This document shows, piece after piece, positions 4,899-23,513 of a DNA stretch of 25,190 bases (within the stretch, counting starts at the first letter, position 1; every line of letters starts with the position of its first letter). This stretch comes from a virus. Its lineage: Duplodnaviria > Caudoviricetes. The stretch covers positions 1 through 25,190 of IMG/VR virus record IMGVR_UViG_3300006930_000026. One strand, given 5' to 3'. Below the pieces are notes generated by a model. It was not told the DNA's origin. It saw nothing but the letters and a program-made list of their open reading frames with translations, and ran no database searches. Position numbers and translations under genes: made by a program.

Positions 4899-4906
4899 AT
4901 AAAGAT

Positions 4907-4930
4907 AGGACATCACAGTCGTGATGCCCT
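4907..4930 (-). promoter_or_regulatory. RNA hairpin in portal 5' leader
   Basis: AGGGCATCAC-GACT-GTGATGTCCT, 10 bp with one G-U on the minus strand, ending 8 nt before the portal ATG. Confidence 0.6.
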
Positions 4931-4962
4931 TTTTCGTAAGTGGCTTTTATAATCTTTACTAT

Positions 4963-4990
4963 ATTATAGCTCCTAGGATATTTTTGTCAA
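4963..4990 (-). promoter_or_regulatory. Consensus sigma70 promoter for portal/head operon
   Basis: TTGACA (4990-4985), 16 nt spacer, TATAAT (4968-4963). Confidence 0.75.
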
Positions 4991-7969: not shown

Positions 7970-7989
7970 TCTTATTCTTCTTTATTTAA

Positions 7990-8038
7990 TTAACTCATGC
8001 CGACTATCAGCGGGACCTGATAACCGGCGATGAACTAA
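7990..8038 (-). promoter_or_regulatory. Long intergenic RNA stem-loop (processing or regulatory site)
   Basis: TTAGTTCAT-C-GCCGGTTATCAG-GTCCCG-CTGATAGTCGGC-ATGAGTTAA; about 21 bp, four G-U pairs that work only on the minus strand, no U-tract. Confidence 0.7.
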
Positions 8039-8253
8039 CTACCTGATGAATATGCTACTTGAAGCCAATCATCTGCTAAGATGTCCTCCTGCAGTGGAGT
8101 CCATTCTTTCAGTTTGCCATCTGTATCAAGTAACATGATGACACTTTCTGCTTCTGGCGGGATCTTAATGGTAAGGTATTTCTCTCCTTTCCATACTTGT
8201 CTCCACACTTGCTTGTTTGTTTTTATTAATTCGAGTGCTTGGCTAAATGTCAT
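8035..8253 (-). CDS. tad2: DUF2829 / Tad2-like protein (candidate cyclic-nucleotide sponge)
   Basis: MTFSQALELIK-x3-VWRQVWKG start and WTPLQEDILADDW end match the DUF2829/Tad2 pattern. Confidence 0.75.
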   Translation of the reverse strand: MTFSQALELIKTNKQVWRQVWKGEKYLTIKIPPEAESVIMLLDTDGKLKEWTPLQEDILADDWLQVAYSSGS

Positions 8254-8265
8254 AGTGTTTTTTTA

Positions 8266-8553
8266 TTAATCTTTCCAAGTTAATGCTTTTACTGCCCACA
8301 TCTGAGCTGTTTGCATTTCGGTAATTGCCACTGAAGCAAGTCTCATTTGTTCTGGTGATTGGGTGTTCTTTCTTAGCATATCCATCTGATCTATTGCTCC
8401 TGCAAAAATTTCTTTGCAAACTTTAACTCCTTCATCTTGTGATGGATTAAAAGTTAACCCTACTGCCTTTTCTCCAAAAGAGAATTCTCTAAATCCTCCT
8501 GGAGATGGTTGACATGCTTCATATGGATCTATTGTTTTGTCTTCTTCTGCCAT
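8266..8553 (-). CDS. Acb2/Tad1-like helical hairpin protein (candidate cyclic-nucleotide sponge)
   Basis: 95 aa from MAEEDK; VGLTFNPS...K...IDQM helix and RLASVAITEMQTAQMWAVKALT resemble the Acb2 C-terminal helix pattern. Confidence 0.7.
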   Translation of the reverse strand: MAEEDKTIDPYEACQPSPGGFREFSFGEKAVGLTFNPSQDEGVKVCKEIFAGAIDQMDMLRKNTQSPEQMRLASVAITEMQTAQMWAVKALTWKD

Positions 8554-9166: not shown

Positions 9167-10696
9167 TTATTTCTGTTCTTCTACTTTATAAGCAATAGTT
9201 CCCTTGCTGGTGATGAATGTTGCAGCGAAGGATACGCTGTTCTCTATGGCACACCTTTCGACCTTTGTCGGGTCAATAATACCTCTCTCGATCATGTCGC
9301 AGTATTCGTCCTTGCTAGCGTCATATCCTTGGCCTTCTGGCATGTTCTTGATGATGTCGGTGTAGTCCTTGCCGCAGTTGTTGATGATTGTCTTTAGCGG
9401 AGCCTTGAGAGCTTCCTTGAGAATCTTCTCTCCGATGTCATTGTCTGATAGGGTCTGGCTTACTTTATAAAGGGTCATACCTCCGCCTGCTACTACTCCT
9501 TCTTCCTTGGCTGACCTGACAGCATTGACAGCGTCTTCTACCTTGTAATAAAGATATCTCATTTCTGTCTCTGTGCCTGCTCCGACCGATATGACTGCTA
9601 CTCCTCCATGGAGTCTTGCTATTCGCTTTTCTACTAAGTCGTACTCATTGTCGCTCTTTAGAGTCTTGAGCTGTTCTTTGAGTTCGGCAATCTTCTCTTC
9701 TGTCTTGGCTTTGCCTTTTCCTCCGGTGATTATAGTCTTATCCTTCTCGCAGATTATCTTGTCGGCCTTACCGAGGACATCCATAGTTAGGTCTGCTAGA
9801 TTGAATCCGGTGTCCTTTGATACCATGGTTGCTCCAGTGTATAAGGCGATATCCTCCAGGATTTCGTTCTTCTGGGAAGCTACTTTGATTATCAATCCAT
9901 TGAACATTCCTGTCTGCTTATTTGCAATGAATGTATTGATTACACTTGTATCTGCATCGGTGCAGAATATTACCAATTCCTTAATCGTGGCACAAGCTCT
10001 TTGAATGAAAGGCAATATCTCGGTAATAGTGCTTATCTTGTCCCCTACTACGAAACATGAGACATCCTCATAGATTGCTTTCTGACCGTTATTAGCCATG
10101 TATGGAGAAGCGTATCCTTTTGCTACTTCATATCCTTCGGTTATTTTTGATTCGATGAATGGAAACTTACCTTCTTCTACGCTGATTACTCCGTCTTCTC
10201 CTACTGCTTCGATAGTGTCGCAGATTATCTTTCCTATCTCTTCGCTTTCTGAAGATATTGAAGCGAGGTTAAGAAGCTCATCTTTTCCTTTGACTTCTCG
10301 GCTGATTTCCTTAAGTGATTTTATTGCTTTGATTTTGGCAGCTTCCAGTTTCCTTCTGATTTCCATTGGGTTCTCGCTGTACTTCGAAGCTTCCTCGATC
10401 AAGGCATGTGCTATGACGATTGATGTCGTAGTACCGTCTCCAGCCTGCTCGTTGGTCTTGCTAGCTACTTCCCTGATTACTTCTACCCCTTGATTCTCTA
10501 TCTCATCGTTAAGTTCTATGGCCTTGCAGATTGATACTCCGTCATTGGTAGTGATTGGTACTGAGAACCCCCTATCAAGAGTTATGTTCAATCCTTTCGG
10601 TCCTAGGGTGCTGGATACTAATTGATGGACTGTATCCATTCCTGTCTTCATTCTCTTCTTGTTATCGTCTCCGATTGATATTATTTTCCTGTTCAT
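9167..10696 (-). CDS. groEL: Phage-encoded group I chaperonin GroEL (Cpn60)
   Basis: STLGPKG, TNDGVSI, AGDGTTTS, RIARLHGGVAVI, VEDAVNA, EEGVVAGGG, GIIDPTKV motifs; 509 aa, no GGM tail. Confidence 0.96.
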   Translation of the reverse strand: MNRKIISIGDDNKKRMKTGMDTVHQLVSSTLGPKGLNITLDRGFSVPITTNDGVSICKAIELNDEIENQGVEVIREVASKTNEQAGDGTTTSIVIAHALIEEASKYSENPMEIRRKLEAAKIKAIKSLKEISREVKGKDELLNLASISSESEEIGKIICDTIEAVGEDGVISVEEGKFPFIESKITEGYEVAKGYASPYMANNGQKAIYEDVSCFVVGDKISTITEILPFIQRACATIKELVIFCTDADTSVINTFIANKQTGMFNGLIIKVASQKNEILEDIALYTGATMVSKDTGFNLADLTMDVLGKADKIICEKDKTIITGGKGKAKTEEKIAELKEQLKTLKSDNEYDLVEKRIARLHGGVAVISVGAGTETEMRYLYYKVEDAVNAVRSAKEEGVVAGGGMTLYKVSQTLSDNDIGEKILKEALKAPLKTIINNCGKDYTDIIKNMPEGQGYDASKDEYCDMIERGIIDPTKVERCAIENSVSFAATFITSKGTIAYKVEEQK

Positions 10697-10938
10697 AGTT
10701 TACAGATTAAAGTTTTATAATTAAGGAAGTAGTATTTCTTCCCCTCGATAGAATGCTCGATTGCCTTGTACTTATCGAATATGACTTGATCGCCATTTGC
10801 TACCTCTTTTACTTCATCTCCCACAGATATGACATTACCTGTCATTATCTGGGAGTCGCTCACATGGAATGATACGTTAGTATCTTCCTTTGATTCTATC
10901 TGGACGAATTCAGTTAATGCCTTCATTTTTTTCTTCAT
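10693..10938 (-). CDS. groES: Co-chaperonin GroES (Cpn10), divergent
   Basis: GNVISVG, VANGDQVIFDKY, IEGKKYYFL motifs; ATGA overlap with groEL. Confidence 0.85.
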   Translation of the reverse strand: MKKKMKALTEFVQIESKEDTNVSFHVSDSQIMTGNVISVGDEVKEVANGDQVIFDKYKAIEHSIEGKKYYFLNYKTLICKL

Positions 10939-12935: not shown

Positions 12936-12936
12936 G

Positions 12937-13395
12937 TTATTCTTCTAAGGCTTGCTCATATGGTTCTGGGATATATAATCCGTACTCACAAACATTCCCC
13001 GGAATATTAGCCCACATTCTTGCCCTACTACACATTGCTGCGAAGTCTCCACTAGACATATTGCTTGTGTTTCCAGCAACTTTTGTACCATCTGGCATTT
13101 CCTTGAAATTACCGATATTGATTTGGATCCACTGATGTATCCTATCATAAGCTTCTTCCCCTATCTCTCCTAATTCATCGGCAATACTTCCTACTATGAA
13201 CTTCCAATAGTAACCATTGAAATTAGTTTTTTCTCCTGGCTGTTTTGAAGTTCTCCTATTAAACTTCTTCCTCGGGCTTACCTCTATTTCTGTCCCTTCA
13301 GGAAAGCCTAGCAAGTAATTCCTTAATCTCATCGGGTCCTGGTATACTAATCCCCCGCTCCTCACTGATGCGTAGAATACCGGTTTTATCTTCAT
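12937..13395 (-). CDS. NinB/Orf-like recombination accessory protein
   Basis: RT-x-KQ...NGYYW, IHQW, TSNMSSGDF, WA...GLYIPEP; start moved to MKIKPV at 13395. Confidence 0.65.
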   Translation of the reverse strand: MKIKPVFYASVRSGGLVYQDPMRLRNYLLGFPEGTEIEVSPRKKFNRRTSKQPGEKTNFNGYYWKFIVGSIADELGEIGEEAYDRIHQWIQINIGNFKEMPDGTKVAGNTSNMSSGDFAAMCSRARMWANIPGNVCEYGLYIPEPYEQALEE

Positions 13396-13720
13396 TTTTA
13401 AGATTATATAACACTCTTCTAAATTCTCCACCCCAATCGACCTTTGGGTATTTGATTAAATCTTCAGGAGTGGCTCTCATTAATGATATCAGCTGATTGA
13501 TGTTCTTATTCAATCCTCCCCGTCCGAAGTATATTCCTAGTCCATGGTGGAACTCACATATAGGTATTATGGCCCACTTCTCGTTTATCTGTCTTCCTGC
13601 ATATATCCAGCAATGTTCCCATGTTATTATTCCTTGGCACTTTCCGTCACAGATTGCGCACTTCTCATAATAAGGATCTACGGACATCTCTCGCTTCATC
13701 TTTTCAGGTATCGGCCTCAT
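13298..13720 (-). CDS. Zinc-binding HNH/Ref-like nuclease
   Basis: CAIC...WEH...IPICEFHH. Confidence 0.65.
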   Translation of the reverse strand: MRPIPEKMKREMSVDPYYEKCAICDGKCQGIITWEHCWIYAGRQINEKWAIIPICEFHHGLGIYFGRGGLNKNINQLISLMRATPEDLIKYPKVDWGGEFRRVLYNLKNEDKTGILRISEERGISIPGPDEIKELLARLS

Positions 13721-15116: not shown

Positions 15117-15707
15117 TTATTTGAATGTATTAACCACTATTTCTTCTTCTACTAATCTGCAACCAGCGACCTTGTATCCCGATTTCAGGGCTTCTTTAAT
15201 CTTTGATTCGTCTGGTACTAGGAAGTCTCTAGGAATAGCTACTAGATCATCTATTACCAATTTCTGGACTTTCCTCGTAGGTATAGCAGCAATCTTTTCC
15301 TCTACTCTTCCTACTGATTTTGTCGCTGTCTCAAAGCTTTCTCCTGATTCTATTCTTTTCTGGGCTTCAGCTTCCCTCTTTTTAGCTTCCTCTTGGAGTT
15401 TCTGATTGTATTTTAGGACTGACCCCTTCAGATATGTCTCGACTGTTGCTATCCTATCTTCGACCGGAGCAAAAACTGCCCTTGCATTCTTAAGTGCTTC
15501 ATTAAGAGGTTTAACTATGCTATCCTTTTGCTCCTGAACAAAATTCTTATATTCCTTTAGAGACTTAAGCATCTCCCCTGCCTTTTCGAATGTAGGCTGA
15601 CTATTTACTTTGAATCTGCAACTATCTTCTAGCTGGGTTGTCTTTTCTTCTGCTAATTCTATTGCCTGTTTCAATTCTACTTTCTTGGTTTCTTCTTTTT
15701 TTGCCAT
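15117..15707 (-). CDS. Gp157-like coiled-coil protein
   Basis: Long coiled coil ending IPRDFLVPDESKIKEALKSGYKVAGCRLVEE; next to ERF. Confidence 0.7.
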   Translation of the reverse strand: MAKKEETKKVELKQAIELAEEKTTQLEDSCRFKVNSQPTFEKAGEMLKSLKEYKNFVQEQKDSIVKPLNEALKNARAVFAPVEDRIATVETYLKGSVLKYNQKLQEEAKKREAEAQKRIESGESFETATKSVGRVEEKIAAIPTRKVQKLVIDDLVAIPRDFLVPDESKIKEALKSGYKVAGCRLVEEEIVVNTFK

Positions 15708-15723
15708 TTTATTTTTATTGTTA

Positions 15724-16059
15724 TTATTTATCTTCGCCGACCCCTAATTGTAATATCTTTGTGTCATTCTTGACTTCGAATACTTTTCCATGGTCTCTCG
15801 TGAAGACCTCTGTCTTCTTGCTTGCAAAATACTTTTTATTTTCGTATATGTATGCTAATACATCGTACTTCTTAGTATTTACTAGCTTGCTCAACTCCTT
15901 GTTAAGATCCGAATCGTCTTCTACAATCTTTACTCTGAACTTATTGTTAACGAGTAGATCATAGTCAGCATTGGGGGTTTCGTATTCCATGTCCCTGATA
16001 GTATACCCTCTTGGCCACAATCCATCTTTGATCTTATTTTTTATTTCTTTCTTGTTCAT
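15724..16059 (-). CDS. Hypothetical protein
   Basis: 111 aa ORF in operon. Confidence 0.65.
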   Translation of the reverse strand: MNKKEIKNKIKDGLWPRGYTIRDMEYETPNADYDLLVNNKFRVKIVEDDSDLNKELSKLVNTKKYDVLAYIYENKKYFASKKTEVFTRDHGKVFEVKNDTKILQLGVGEDK

Positions 16060-16073
16060 GCTCTTATCTTACT

Positions 16074-17573
16074 TTATCTTACATAATTTGTCAACTCTGA
16101 TATTTTCTTCATTACTTCTTTTTCCATAGAATTATCCTTGACTTCAACCACCTTTCCATCAAGTACCTGATCGGATATATCCTGCTTCTGGCTAAGGATA
16201 TCAAATATGTATTTCTCGATGGTGTCGTTACAAATATAGTAATAAATGAATACAGTGTCTTTTTGACCTATTCTATGAGCCCTATCCTCGGCCTGTCGAT
16301 GTTCTCCTGGAGACCATACCATGTCAGCAAATATCACTATTGCCGACTCAGTAAGGGTCAATCCTACTCCGCCGGCTTTGATGTTGGCGATGAATACCTT
16401 TGTCTCATCGTCTCCCTGGAACGAATCGACTGCTTGCTGTCTTTCTTCTTGGGTGTTCTCCCCCGTAAGTGATACGCACTTGATTCCTTCTTTCTCAATC
16501 AGTGCTTTTATAGTCCTAATGGTTTCAGTGTATTGGCTAAATATTATCACTTTCTTTTCTTGGTCTACCATATTGAGAGTATCTTCAGCTATTATTGATG
16601 TCTTAGAAAGACTGCATACCTGCTTCAGCTTATTGATCTCTATCAATTGTCTGGCATCGACTATATTGTCTATATTGTCATTGTTCTTGACTATATCTAA
16701 ATAACTATCCCAAGCGTTTTCGTATTCTTTCTTTTGTGCTGGAGTTAGTTCTATCTCTCGGACTTCTCTTATCTTCGGAGGTAGGTCAAGAATATCTTTT
16801 TTCCTTCTGATTATCCATCCCTCAAGTTCTTTTCTTAATTGATCGAGATTCTTTGCCCCTTTATAATCAGGAAATCTGAAATTGATAGGGAACTTATGTT
16901 CGTTACCATAATACTTGTAATAACTATCCTGACTGACTGTAAATTTCTTACCTGTCCTAGTATCGGTGATGTTGTACATCCATATCATATCGCAGTATTT
17001 TTTTGCGAATGTCATCTGATTTGCTCCGAGGGGATGACCGATTGCCTTTAATAAATTGAACATCTCAATTGGTTTATTCAATATTGGTGTTCCTGTAAGG
17101 GCATATATCGTGTCTACAGCCTTGCATAGACCTTTGAATGAGACTATACCTGATTTCTTCTTTGCTCTCCCTCCAATGACCGCTTTTGTCCTTATGGTGT
17201 TACCTTTGATGTAGTGGGCTTCGTCCAGAATAATAGAATCAAAGTCTATTTTCAATAATTCTTCGTAATGCTTCTCGAGAATGTCATAGTTTATTATATT
17301 CCACTTGCATTTGATTGGTCCATCTCTAATGATGTTAATTTCATCTTCTGGATATATTGATTCAATTTCTCTTTTCCAGTTTATCTTTAATGATGCTGGG
17401 CATATTATCAGAATTCTTTCTGATCCGCTTTCTCTGGAGGATACGATAGCTTGGAGAGTCTTACCTAGACCCATATCATCGGCCAAAATAAACCGTTGGT
17501 ATCCTACTGGGTTCTTTCCTGTTAAAAATATTACACCCTCTTCTTGATGCTTAAATAATTTTGGTCTTGTCAT
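16074..17573 (-). CDS. SNF2-family (SF2) helicase/ATPase
   Basis: LADDMGLGKT, DEAHYIK, LTGTP, IIFSQY, GGVGLTLT, QAEDRAHRIGQ; likely start MTRPKLFKHQ at 17573. Confidence 0.93.
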   Translation of the reverse strand: MTRPKLFKHQEEGVIFLTGKNPVGYQRFILADDMGLGKTLQAIVSSRESGSERILIICPASLKINWKREIESIYPEDEINIIRDGPIKCKWNIINYDILEKHYEELLKIDFDSIILDEAHYIKGNTIRTKAVIGGRAKKKSGIVSFKGLCKAVDTIYALTGTPILNKPIEMFNLLKAIGHPLGANQMTFAKKYCDMIWMYNITDTRTGKKFTVSQDSYYKYYGNEHKFPINFRFPDYKGAKNLDQLRKELEGWIIRRKKDILDLPPKIREVREIELTPAQKKEYENAWDSYLDIVKNNDNIDNIVDARQLIEINKLKQVCSLSKTSIIAEDTLNMVDQEKKVIIFSQYTETIRTIKALIEKEGIKCVSLTGENTQEERQQAVDSFQGDDETKVFIANIKAGGVGLTLTESAIVIFADMVWSPGEHRQAEDRAHRIGQKDTVFIYYYICNDTIEKYIFDILSQKQDISDQVLDGKVVEVKDNSMEKEVMKKISELTNYVR

Positions 17574-21784: not shown

Positions 21785-22006
21785 TTAATTAATATTACCC
21801 TTATAATATCCTTCTAGCTTTTCTCCCTTTCTCTTGAAAGCAGGTTCTTCGATACTTTCTTCTTGACATTCTTTGATGACATTCCTTAATTCATTAAGTG
21901 TTTTTGAAATCATGAGTGACGTTTTTTTCTTTTCGCTTTTTACTCCTAGATCATAGGATATCATTCCAGTTATTATCGCTATTAATATTGTTGTTAAGAT
22001 TTCCAT
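21785..22006 (-). CDS. Single-pass membrane protein
   Basis: N-terminal hydrophobic helix. Confidence 0.6.
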   Translation of the reverse strand: MEILTTILIAIITGMISYDLGVKSEKKKTSLMISKTLNELRNVIKECQEESIEEPAFKRKGEKLEGYYKGNIN

Positions 22007-22012
22007 AATTTT

Positions 22013-22141
22013 TTATTTTATTACTTCACCACTGAACGGTGTCCCACAACTATGCTCATTGTCCGAGCATGGATTCATGGGGTTACTTATTATGATTGCT
22101 AGTATTACAGCCACTAGCAAGGCTATTATAAATTTGCTCAT
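22013..22141 (-). CDS. 42-aa membrane-anchored peptide
   Basis: MSKFIIALLVAVILAIIISNPMNPCSDNEHSCGTPFSGEVIK. Confidence 0.55.
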   Translation of the reverse strand: MSKFIIALLVAVILAIIISNPMNPCSDNEHSCGTPFSGEVIK

Positions 22142-22153
22142 AGGTTTATGTTA

Positions 22154-22213
22154 TTATCTTTCCCCCATCTGCGGATGAGTATCTTCCTCGTCTCTGTCTT
22201 CGTCTTCCATCAT
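22154..22213 (-). CDS. 19-aa acidic peptide (tentative)
   Basis: MMEDEDRDEEDTHPQMGER, starts 4 nt after upstream stop, ends TAATAA. Confidence 0.4.
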   Translation of the reverse strand: MMEDEDRDEEDTHPQMGER

Positions 22214-22217
22214 GGTA

Positions 22218-22415
22218 TTATATTGCGAATAATCCATTATGAGGAATAAACTCATATCTCTTTCCATTAGCACTTTCTAATGTGTAAATATCTGGTAATC
22301 TATCTTTTTCTGAATTTATTGCTATTATCTTCAATCCTCTCATAAACCCTATATTTACTATTGATCCTATGTTCCAATCTTTATTTTTATTCAAGCAATT
22401 ATTTTGACTAATCAT
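22218..22415 (-). CDS. First early gene; small beta-rich hypothetical protein
   Basis: DWNIGSIVNIGF...PDIYTL...YEFIPHNGL. Confidence 0.7.
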   Translation of the reverse strand: MISQNNCLNKNKDWNIGSIVNIGFMRGLKIIAINSEKDRLPDIYTLESANGKRYEFIPHNGLFAI

Positions 22416-22432
22416 GGTTTTATTCTTTAATC

Positions 22433-22534
22433 GGAGGAAGCCAGACTTTGATGTTAGACTTCCTCCTGTTTTTTATTTACCAGGGAGTGGATTGAAGTTA
22501 TTTTCATAACTTAGTACACCACCATCTCCCTCGT
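22433..22534 (-). ncRNA. Structured 5' leader of early transcript
   Basis: Three helices: AGGGAG(A)TGG/CCACTCCCT, AAGTTAT-GAAA-ATAACTT, GGAGGAAGTC/GGCTTCCTCC. Confidence 0.55.
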
Positions 22535-22540
22535 GTTTTA

Positions 22541-22569
22541 ATCTTACTCTATCTTACAGAATTTGTCAA
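22541..22569 (-). promoter_or_regulatory. Sigma70 early promoter
   Basis: TTGACA (22569-22564), 17 nt, TAAGAT (22546-22541). Confidence 0.75.
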
Positions 22570-22593
22570 ATATAATTTTGTCCCCAGCTTCAG

Positions 22594-22632
22594 CTCTGTT
22601 GTATTCTATGTAGTAATCTATGTACATATATA
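22594..22632. repeat. AT-rich short repeats, candidate DNA unwinding element
   Basis: Minus strand TATATATGT-ACATAGATT-ACT-ACATAGAAT-ACA-ACAGAG. Confidence 0.5.
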
Positions 22633-22701
22633 GGTTGGGCGGAAACGTACCAACTGGTTGGGCGGAAACGTACCAACTGGTTGGGCGGAAACGTACCAAC
22701 T
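22633..22701. repeat. Three perfect tandem 23-bp repeats (candidate iterons)
   Basis: GGTTGGGCGGAAACGTACCAACT x3, each an imperfect palindrome (GTTGG...CCAAC). Confidence 0.92.
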
Positions 22702-22742
22702 GTATCCACAGATATCCACCATCAATCCACACCTTTTCCACA
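22702..22742 (+). promoter_or_regulatory. Four phased DnaA-box-like 9-mers
   Basis: GTATCCACA 22702, ATATCCACC 22712, CAATCCACA 22723, TTTTCCACA 22734 (last fits TTWTNCACA); spacing 10, 11, 11 bp. Confidence 0.6.
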
Positions 22743-22744
22743 AC

Positions 22745-22766
22745 AAAAATCCCCCGAGCGGGGGAT
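22745..22766 (-). terminator. Intrinsic terminator
   Basis: ATCCCCC-GCTC-GGGGGAT then TTTTGTTG on the minus strand. Confidence 0.85.
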
Positions 22767-22807
22767 AAATGGCCGGCAAAGTAAAGAATAACCAAGAAAC
22801 TCTGCCT
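22745..22807 (-). ncRNA. Candidate small RNA of about 63 nt
   Basis: Own promoter, 5' hairpin GGCAGAGT/ACTTTGCC with 16-nt pyrimidine-rich loop, then terminator; no ORF within. Confidence 0.6.
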
Positions 22808-22812
22808 ATCTA

Positions 22813-22841
22813 ATTCTAACATAAAAAGAAGGGCGTATCAA
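22813..22841 (-). promoter_or_regulatory. Sigma70 promoter for the small RNA
   Basis: TTGATA (22841-22836), 17 nt, TAGAAT (22818-22813) with extended TG. Confidence 0.65.
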
Positions 22842-22848
22842 TTGCCCT
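22823..22848 (-). terminator. Weak intrinsic terminator after HNH cassette
   Basis: AGGGC-AATTGATAC-GCCCT followed by TCTTTTT. Confidence 0.45.
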
Positions 22849-23008
22849 AATCACTCCAGATGACCCTGTCCCAGTATGGACTTTGTCCCATATAACCTTG
22901 TCTCATGCTTGATTCCATTGCTTTGATATGTGTCCGGATTTTCTGGATTATCCGTTCCATTTTCTCAAGTTCTGCGTCCATTTTTTCTTGTATTTCTTCC
23001 TGATTCAT
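22847..23008 (-). CDS. 53-aa helical protein overlapping HNH gene end (below ORF-track cutoff)
   Basis: MNQEEIQEKMDAELEKMERIIQKIRTHIKAMESSMRQGYMGQSPYWDRVIWSD; GAGGA upstream. Confidence 0.5.
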   Translation of the reverse strand: MNQEEIQEKMDAELEKMERIIQKIRTHIKAMESSMRQGYMGQSPYWDRVIWSD

Positions 23009-23228
23009 TCTGATTCCTCATAAGTTCGTTCATTGCCTGTTTCCCTAGGTTTGGGTACTGCCTAAGGATTTCATTTTCTTTTCTCGATACGATAGCCTCT
23101 ACTTTATCATGGCATCTACGACAAAGCAGTATGATGTCATCATTCTCTCCCCATACAAATCTCTTGTGGACATGGTGGCGAGTCAATGAAGTCCATCGAT
23201 GGCAACAAGGACATTCTCCTGTTCTCAT
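22965..23228 (-). CDS. Minimal HNH endonuclease
   Basis: CPCC...LTRHHV...LLCRRCHDKV. Confidence 0.8.
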   Translation of the reverse strand: MRTGECPCCHRWTSLTRHHVHKRFVWGENDDIILLCRRCHDKVEAIVSRKENEILRQYPNLGKQAMNELMRNQNESGRNTRKNGRRT

Positions 23229-23251
23229 CTGATCACCAAGGTACTGGCTCT

Positions 23252-23260
23252 ATTATACCA
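23252..23260 (-). promoter_or_regulatory. Extended -10 promoter for HNH cassette
   Basis: TGGTATAAT about 23 nt upstream of HNH ATG. Confidence 0.55.
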
Positions 23261-23261
23261 C

Positions 23262-23289
23262 AAAACACAAAAAACAGGTAGCCCTGTTT
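23262..23289 (-). terminator. Intrinsic terminator of lysis/late operon
   Basis: AAACAGG-GCTA-CCTGTTT then TTTGTGTTTT. Confidence 0.6.
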
Positions 23290-23327
23290 GATGTGAATAA
23301 TAATAAATAAAATGCTCTTTTATAATA

Positions 23328-23513
23328 TCATTTGACATTAGTACTGTCAATACTCGCCTGTCCATCCTTTTTCCCGAAGTAATATGATACTACTATGAAA
23401 CATAAACTGATGAAGTCCTTCGAATCGGTTATTCCTTGATAGGTGAATACCAATAATCCCAATATCATGGCCAGAAGGACTAATTTTGTGACACTATTAA
23501 ATATTTGATTCAT
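23328..23513 (-). CDS. Probable holin (two TM helices)
   Basis: Two hydrophobic helices, IVVSYYFGKK, ATGA overlap with endolysin. Confidence 0.7.
   Translation of the reverse strand: MNQIFNSVTKLVLLAMILGLLVFTYQGITDSKDFISLCFIVVSYYFGKKDGQASIDSTNVK

Follow-up and report, generated by a model that had tools for sequence, protein, structure and literature searches.

The control region of this phage genome contains a promoter, a stem-loop and a terminator in close succession, which raises the question of whether the unit makes a functional RNA and what such an RNA would act on. An earlier note had proposed a trans-acting RNA that represses several key phage genes at A-rich starts without Shine-Dalgarno (SD) sequences, in the place of a protein repressor. 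We examined this proposal in the whole stretch of DNA available (25 190 nt, hereafter the window), a linear phage record with an estimated completeness of ∼64%, so that 36% of the genome is absent.

The genes with a family match are all on the minus strand, in the order lysis genes, HNH gene, 53-aa gene, control region, small early genes, SNF2 helicase, Gp157/Gam-like, ERF, exonuclease, O-like rep, GroES/EL, Acb2/Tad1- and Tad2-like, terminase, portal and capsid. The starts are A-rich, and an SD-like 4-mer precedes only 6 of 51. Since a TM7 phage (30.5% identity) is among the two best matches of the capsid in deposited phages, the host is likely a member of the Patescibacteria (CPR). The rep gene was found to have no relative in viral contigs. 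Positions 8035-8553 and 9167-10938 hold adjoining Tad2-like and Acb2/Tad1-like anti-defence genes and a GroEL/GroES pair, and GroEL was also found in at least four of the capsid relatives. The first early gene is followed by two small ORFs that carry no annotation (22000-22216, minus strand), one for an acidic peptide of ∼19 aa and the other for a ∼45-aa protein whose N-terminus is hydrophobic. Just upstream of rep, a promoter-like site (13395-13430, minus strand) sets the start at ATG 13395, a possible leaderless unit, and the portal gene is preceded by a perfect consensus promoter and a leader hairpin (4899-4990, minus strand).

The putative RNA gene has the anatomy previously described for it (Table 1): the TTGATA-17-TAGAAT promoter, the start at the first base of an 8-bp stem and the terminator behind the stem-loop were all found in place. 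The promoter, predicted from its consensus match, agrees with the consensus at 10 of 12 positions and carries the TG extension, and its -35 hexamer sits within the loop of the hairpin that would terminate the upstream HNH/53-aa cassette. The predicted start, G22806, lies 7 nt below the -10 element and is the first base of the stem (22806-22799 paired with 22782-22775). One G-U pair in this stem favours the minus strand, and the terminator has no U tail on the plus strand. The whole unit folds at a z score of -3.5 and is located 180 nt upstream of the early promoter. Promoter, 5' stem and terminator together occurred in none of 1000 dinucleotide shuffles of 22416-23330 and in none of 60 shuffles of the whole window, by criteria set after the element had been seen. 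Promoter plus terminator alone appeared in 2 of 1000 shuffles of 22416-23330, and promoter-like matches alone were at chance density in the region (19 versus 20.6). A 92-aa frame overlapping the RNA had no family match; a 14-codon plus-strand frame over the hairpin was set aside, as no promoter was seen for it and the G-U pair favours the minus strand. The promoter consensus, the stem at the predicted start, the open loop, the terminator and the complementarity described below are all features of the DNA itself. With an independent promoter, an intrinsic terminator and no coding frame, the unit shares these sequence characters with trans-acting antisense small RNAs, and its predicted anatomy speaks well for a stand-alone small-RNA gene whose product exposes a U-rich loop.

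Table 1. Coordinates of the small-RNA cassette, its surroundings and the predicted pairing sites in the window
Feature	Position	Strand	Details
Intrinsic-terminator-like hairpin ending the upstream HNH/53-aa cassette	22823..22848	-	sequence and fold
Sigma70-type promoter of the RNA (predicted)	22813..22841	-	TTGATA 22841-22836, 17 nt, TG-extended TAGAAT 22818-22813
Predicted ∼62-nt small RNA	22745..22806	-	start predicted at G22806; 3' end in U tail near 22745-22741
5' hairpin	22775..22806	-	8-bp stem, 16-nt U-rich open loop 22798-22783; z -2.8 alone
Single-stranded linker (8 nt)	22767..22774	-	predicted to take part in pairing with the Gp157-like start
Intrinsic terminator of the RNA	22745..22766	-	7-bp stem (22766-22749) and U tail
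Four tandem DnaA-box-like motifs	22701..22742	+	immediately beyond the RNA terminator
Three identical 23-bp tandem repeats	22633..22702		internally palindromic; AT-rich stretch follows
Early promoter	22541..22569	-	TTGACA-17-TAAGAT; duplicated at 16094-16066
Early leader with two hairpins	22433..22534	-	z -5.6
Weak predicted site at first early gene (65 aa)	22412..22429	-	before and over AUG
Alternative second pairing site, -35..-25 of Gp157-like gene	15732..15742	-	11 pairs, RNA nt 26-36
Gp157/Mu Gam-like gene	15117..15707	-	PHROG 253 E 8e-7; Pfam PF05565 E 1.6e-5, below its cut-off
Main predicted target, +2..+27 of Gp157/Gam-like gene	15681..15706	-	23 colinear pairs with RNA nt 8-33
Weak predicted site before rep (O-like) AUG	12936..12945	-	loop match, cofolding
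Secondary predicted site before terS-like gene	7972..8004	-	8-nt loop match and GUCGGC at -35

When the whole RNA was folded with start regions, its pairing with the start of the Gp157-like gene comprised 10 + 6 + 7 pairs, with one G-U at the AUG, and reached well past the 10 nt noted earlier. A two-part clamp was obtained as an alternative, in which RNA nt 26-36 pair upstream of the gene (Table 1). This start ranked first among 624 genome-wide windows (-19.7) and among 53 starts (-20.3, followed by -15.3 and -8.7), and it remained first in narrower windows (-15.5 versus -9). Ensemble binding gave -20.6 kcal/mol for the Gp157-like start, -14.3 for terS and -8.9 or weaker for the others; with the structure of the target included, the first early gene reached -6.8 and rep -4.9 kcal/mol. 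In a loop-only, accessibility-weighted ranking the Gp157-like start again came first, and the top three sites were all at +6..+30 of starts. A search of the PDB with the Gp157-like protein returned nothing better than E 0.18.

The significance of this target varies with the window and the null model. Shuffles that keep the stem matched the best value in 1/170 cases for the -40..+40 window, 11/219 for -12..+35 and 8/226 for -25..+30. Starts from 15 other phage records, called mechanically and including some near-duplicates, equalled it in 0/552, 2/554 and 1/556 cases (best-of-53 P 0, 0.18 and 0.09); 4 of 563 such starts were at or below -15, with a site of -18.0 held by L122 and L128. The top-scoring local antisense alignment of the window is also that of the Gp157-like site (P 0.035 when compared among starts, 0.14 genome-wide), a score equalled by 5 of 27 foreign pieces with the identical L184 left out. 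By unconstrained duplex energy P was 0.09, and three sites in coding regions were stronger. Complementarity of seed and start thus ranged over P 0.006-0.05 against structure-keeping shuffles, 0-0.18 against foreign starts and 0.09-0.14 in two other tests, all nominal, uncorrected values for a target singled out after many tests. Among the best 52 of 76 homologues, the target codons and the N-terminus of the Gp157-like protein vary. We regard the Gp157-like start as a suggestive, not an established, antisense target; the calculations give modest support to antisense action on a phage start region, with one main target rather than four.

Our leading interpretation, to which we give a probability of about 45%, is that the RNA is an antisense small RNA aimed mainly at the Gp157/Gam-like start and hence at the recombination module, and not a demonstrated master repressor. 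Host sigma70 polymerase would transcribe the cassette into a stable 62-base RNA, whose U-rich open loop would pair first with +10..+27 of the A-rich, unstructured Gp157-like message. The 8-bp stem would then open and the pairing would extend as far as +2 or, alternatively, take in -35..-25, and so clamp the start. Ribosome loading would likely be blocked at the head of the run of recombination genes, with terS, the first early gene and rep as weaker side targets at most. This closely packed run consists of Gp157, ERF, exonuclease and two small genes: a 16-nt leader gap of its own precedes the Gp157-like start, ERF begins 1 nt past the Gp157-like stop and the next three genes overlap. Because the genes behind the Gp157-like start abut or overlap, a block there would likely lower the whole recombination run. 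Proteins of the Gam-like kind attach to the ends of linear DNA and can be a burden to the host. A precedent for small-RNA action on SD-less starts is GibS, as described in the accessible part of PMC7366714.

A more elaborate version of this mechanism, which we consider distinctly unlikely, is that a small RNA of a CPR phage clamps SD-less starts from both sides and shuts down the Gp157-ERF-exonuclease module together with terS during a plasmid-like carrier state. The loop would lie at or just inside the start, and the GC-rich stem-linker would bind a GUCGG-type element ∼35 nt upstream. GUCGGC does occur at -34 of the Gp157-like gene and at -35 of terS, the two best targets. Across 548 foreign starts, from 15 related phage records, GGUCG shows enrichment at -50..-31 (16 in two bins versus ∼2-3 per bin elsewhere). 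GGTCG upstream of starts is possibly a host-type translation or leader signal. Within the window, GGTCG was observed within 60 nt of six starts (24289, 23573, 15742, 15171, 13442 and 11636).

The RNA is an orphan. Rfam gave no match in the window at E ≤ 1 and merely unrelated, sub-threshold matches at E ≤ 10, and blastn against phages and plasmids returned short chance matches only. No RNA homologue was found in viral contigs with the exact 19-nt loop pattern, no copy was detected in DNA searches of 15 and 5 related records, and a one-sequence covariance model run over 640 kb and 17 records found no homologue (best foreign E 0.83). Relatives of the lysozyme, HNH, first-gene and capsid proteins were 36-72% identical, copies of the same phage aside, and the RNA was absent at the loci examined. 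Among 24 first-early-gene loci, 19 were checked, five being omitted as duplicates or too short, and none of the 19 showed the RNA. A loose promoter-stem pattern yielded ∼14 000 stretches and was non-discriminating, and a scan of the relatives for U-rich hairpins gave no clear own-target pattern, with an ORF filter that also dropped the window's own hairpin. TIGR guide RNAs have CCA and UG boxes around two 8-12-nt spacers and are arrayed beside a Nop-domain gene, according to the accessible part of PMC12045711; this identity was rejected, as the locus has no CCA inside the stem and a single unit, and no Nop or IS110 family was found among the 54 ORFs.

We next consider a stable RNA that has no phage mRNA target, whether it is left over from a tRNA-type cassette, serves as a decoy for a protein or is directed at host messages, and whose matches to the phage are compositional. 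This explanation, which we judge unlikely, draws on the relatives: three of them carry tRNA genes that score in Rfam beside a small HNH-type gene, which is an orthologue of the window's HNH gene in L187 and L185 and a similar gene in L177. In records G018 and G017 a shared stand-alone promoter-terminator unit encloses a tRNA (G018) or short hairpins only (G017), and the 5' stem with the GCCA that follows it is, in our reading, loosely acceptor-stem-like. Most of the set-level target statistics given below are also at chance. However, ARAGORN detected no tRNA in the window and Rfam none even at E 10, so that a tRNA or tRNA-derived identity was rejected for want of a cloverleaf or model match; the covariance model of the RNA found nothing in the tRNA-type cassettes of the relatives; and the 23-pair fit to one start is left unexplained. 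Separately, the capsid relatives L177 (4240-4470, minus strand) and L178 (3235-3350, plus strand) have a stand-alone promoter and terminator in common, where one holds a degenerate tRNA and a hairpin whose loop shares an 8-mer with the RNA and the other short hairpins only.

The proposal that the RNA acts on the first early gene, rep, terS and Gp157 together, as P4 CI and P1 c4 do in RNA-based control and in place of a protein repressor, is in our view very doubtful. All four loop matches exist, at 22420-22429 (10 nt), 12936-12944 (9 nt), 7972-7979 (8 nt) and 15681-15690 (10 nt), but as a set they do not exceed chance. The first 40 nt of the RNA have 37 matches of at least 8 nt in the window, and starts with such a match number 5/52 (six of the start coordinates being a few bases off), compared with 4.9 in mononucleotide and 5.8 in dinucleotide shuffles (400 each); the set is at chance level because the starts are A-rich. 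A shared 8-mer stands before 3/51 starts versus 6/551 foreign ones (P 0.21-0.28), with P 0.06-0.28 upstream of starts and 0.06-0.78 across all settings. Matches of at least 10 nt show a modest excess, which we count in favour of the antisense interpretation above: all three lie in start windows (3/53 starts versus 0/315 gene interiors, and 2/563 foreign starts), an excess with P 0.01-0.04 against mononucleotide and 0.05-0.09 against dinucleotide shuffles. The AAGAA richness of this genome (12.7 versus 7.0 per kb in starts) accounts for part of this excess, and an unrelated U-rich stretch at 23294-23314 also has 10-nt matches, over two start codons.

The match at the first early gene had P 0.003-0.04 on bare pairing and 0.013-0.19 with accessibility, and the binding energies of this gene and rep are low, as given above. 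The value for the terS-like site was reached only with a 40-nt upstream window. The combined score of the top three cofolded targets had P 0.047 in the wide window and was unremarkable in narrow ones (65/219 and 55/226). Of the proposed repressor of SD-less A-rich starts, the action on the Gp157-like start retains modest support, whereas the multi-start set does not.

The idea that the RNA replaces a protein repressor is also unsupported. It is correct that no integrase or repressor family was matched among the 54 ORFs scanned, although in a record that is only 64% complete, and the duplicated early promoter points to control at the DNA level. Its two copies (22531-22582 and 16056-16107) are 79% identical over 52 nt and share an 18-nt repeat-bearing match with an identical spacer, which is expected 0.29 times by chance. 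A tandem TAAGAT repeat covers the -10 element in both copies and is likely, from its sequence, a shared operator; the duplication with an identical repeat-bearing spacer suggests that a protein regulator acts on both and that the RNA would be a second layer. The copy at 16094-16066 precedes a 111-aa gene at 16059, one gene upstream of the Gp157-like gene; this gene is likely leaderless, its ATG coinciding with the predicted start of transcription. Neither the 111-aa nor the 65-aa protein was identified as a regulator in atlas look-ups. The second hairpin of the early leader reads as a plus-strand terminator with a U tract and would stop antisense transcription. On the minus strand at 23272-23350, overlapping the end of the holin-like gene, we observed the best promoter match of the region (11/12, TG). 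A U-rich stretch and a terminator come after it, and together these could specify a second RNA of ∼45 nt; beyond this terminator an extended -10 element precedes the HNH gene.

The surroundings of the cassette suggest a further explanation, that a short transcript running toward the DnaA-box and repeat region serves to tune or insulate the early promoter or an origin, with the sequence of the RNA being incidental. The terminator abuts the four DnaA-like boxes, which bring 4 of the 16 plus-strand TCCAC[AC] sites together within 37 bp, and these are followed by the three 23-bp repeats, likely origin iterons or operators, and the AT-rich stretch. As rep has no repeats of 10-12 nt inside the gene, the region 22600-22742 may be the origin, 10 kb from rep. 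The promoter of lambda OOP likewise matters for replication while its RNA is no primer, according to the accessible part of PMC12197685. This role is nonetheless very unlikely: the upstream cassette already has its own terminator, the placement of a GC-rich stem precisely at +1 suggests that the RNA itself is under selection, and DnaA-like boxes occur in 7 of 19 related loci without such a cassette. Specifically, TTATCCACA was found exactly within 160 nt upstream in 7 of 19 first-early-gene loci, and as a variant in one; as these RNA-less loci have it before the first early promoter, the boxes may be promoter elements and not an origin. The TTATCCACA box was observed just upstream of the first early promoter in L143, L144, L147-L150 and L162 (∼85-155 nt above the first-gene match) and in L123 (6813), and in L147-L149 an ORF for a basic protein of 46-53 aa terminates next to it and could encode a small repressor. 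Finally, that the unit is inert or unexpressed, its promoter and hairpin being leftovers, accords with the lack of detected conservation and the chance density of promoter-like matches but is most improbable given that every element is intact and no shuffle reproduced the joint arrangement.

Among known systems, the sar RNA of phage P22 is encoded opposite its target with perfect complementarity; unlike it, the window RNA has a predicted target 7 kb off, imperfectly matched, SD-less and belonging to a recombination gene. The two are alike in size and, by prediction for the window RNA, in pairing to block initiation of one phage gene: sar (68/69 nt) represses the antirepressor gene ant by blocking translation initiation, as the accessible part of PMC12197685 describes. 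P1/P7 c4 and P4 CI similarly display an antisense sequence in a loop and act in trans on phage messages, P4 CI being processed from a primary transcript and pairing with the flanking seqA and seqC to cause termination (accessible parts of PMC12197685 and PMC4825925). The comparison drawn earlier with these two RNAs fails on Rfam and on architecture, since the window RNA has, by sequence, a promoter and a terminator to itself rather than being processed out of the leader of the target operon. Two flanking complementary sites were sought within 22416-23330, where the only match of at least 8 nt was 22420-22429, which binds weakly; membership of the c4/CI group was rejected on these grounds.

GibS of Bacteroides thetaiotaomicron resembles the window RNA in having an AU-rich single-stranded seed that is predicted to lie over start regions in an SD-less lineage, but it is, in the accessible part of PMC7366714, a conserved host small RNA with tested metabolic targets, whereas the window RNA is an orphan of phage origin and has a hairpin loop. 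Lambda OOP (77 nt) is also a short promoter-to-terminator RNA with a promoter linked to replication control, and it is cis-antisense to cII (PMC12197685, accessible part), while the strand opposite the window RNA carries no gene apart from the 14-codon frame. In a search mostly limited to the open-access literature, we found no paper describing a base-pairing small RNA of a CPR phage. If the preferred interpretation of an antisense RNA against the Gp157/Gam-like start is true, this locus would provide a small RNA that acts by base pairing in a phage whose host probably belongs to the CPR, would show antisense control operating on starts without an SD sequence, and would mean that a phage restrains its own DNA-end-binding and recombination genes through RNA.
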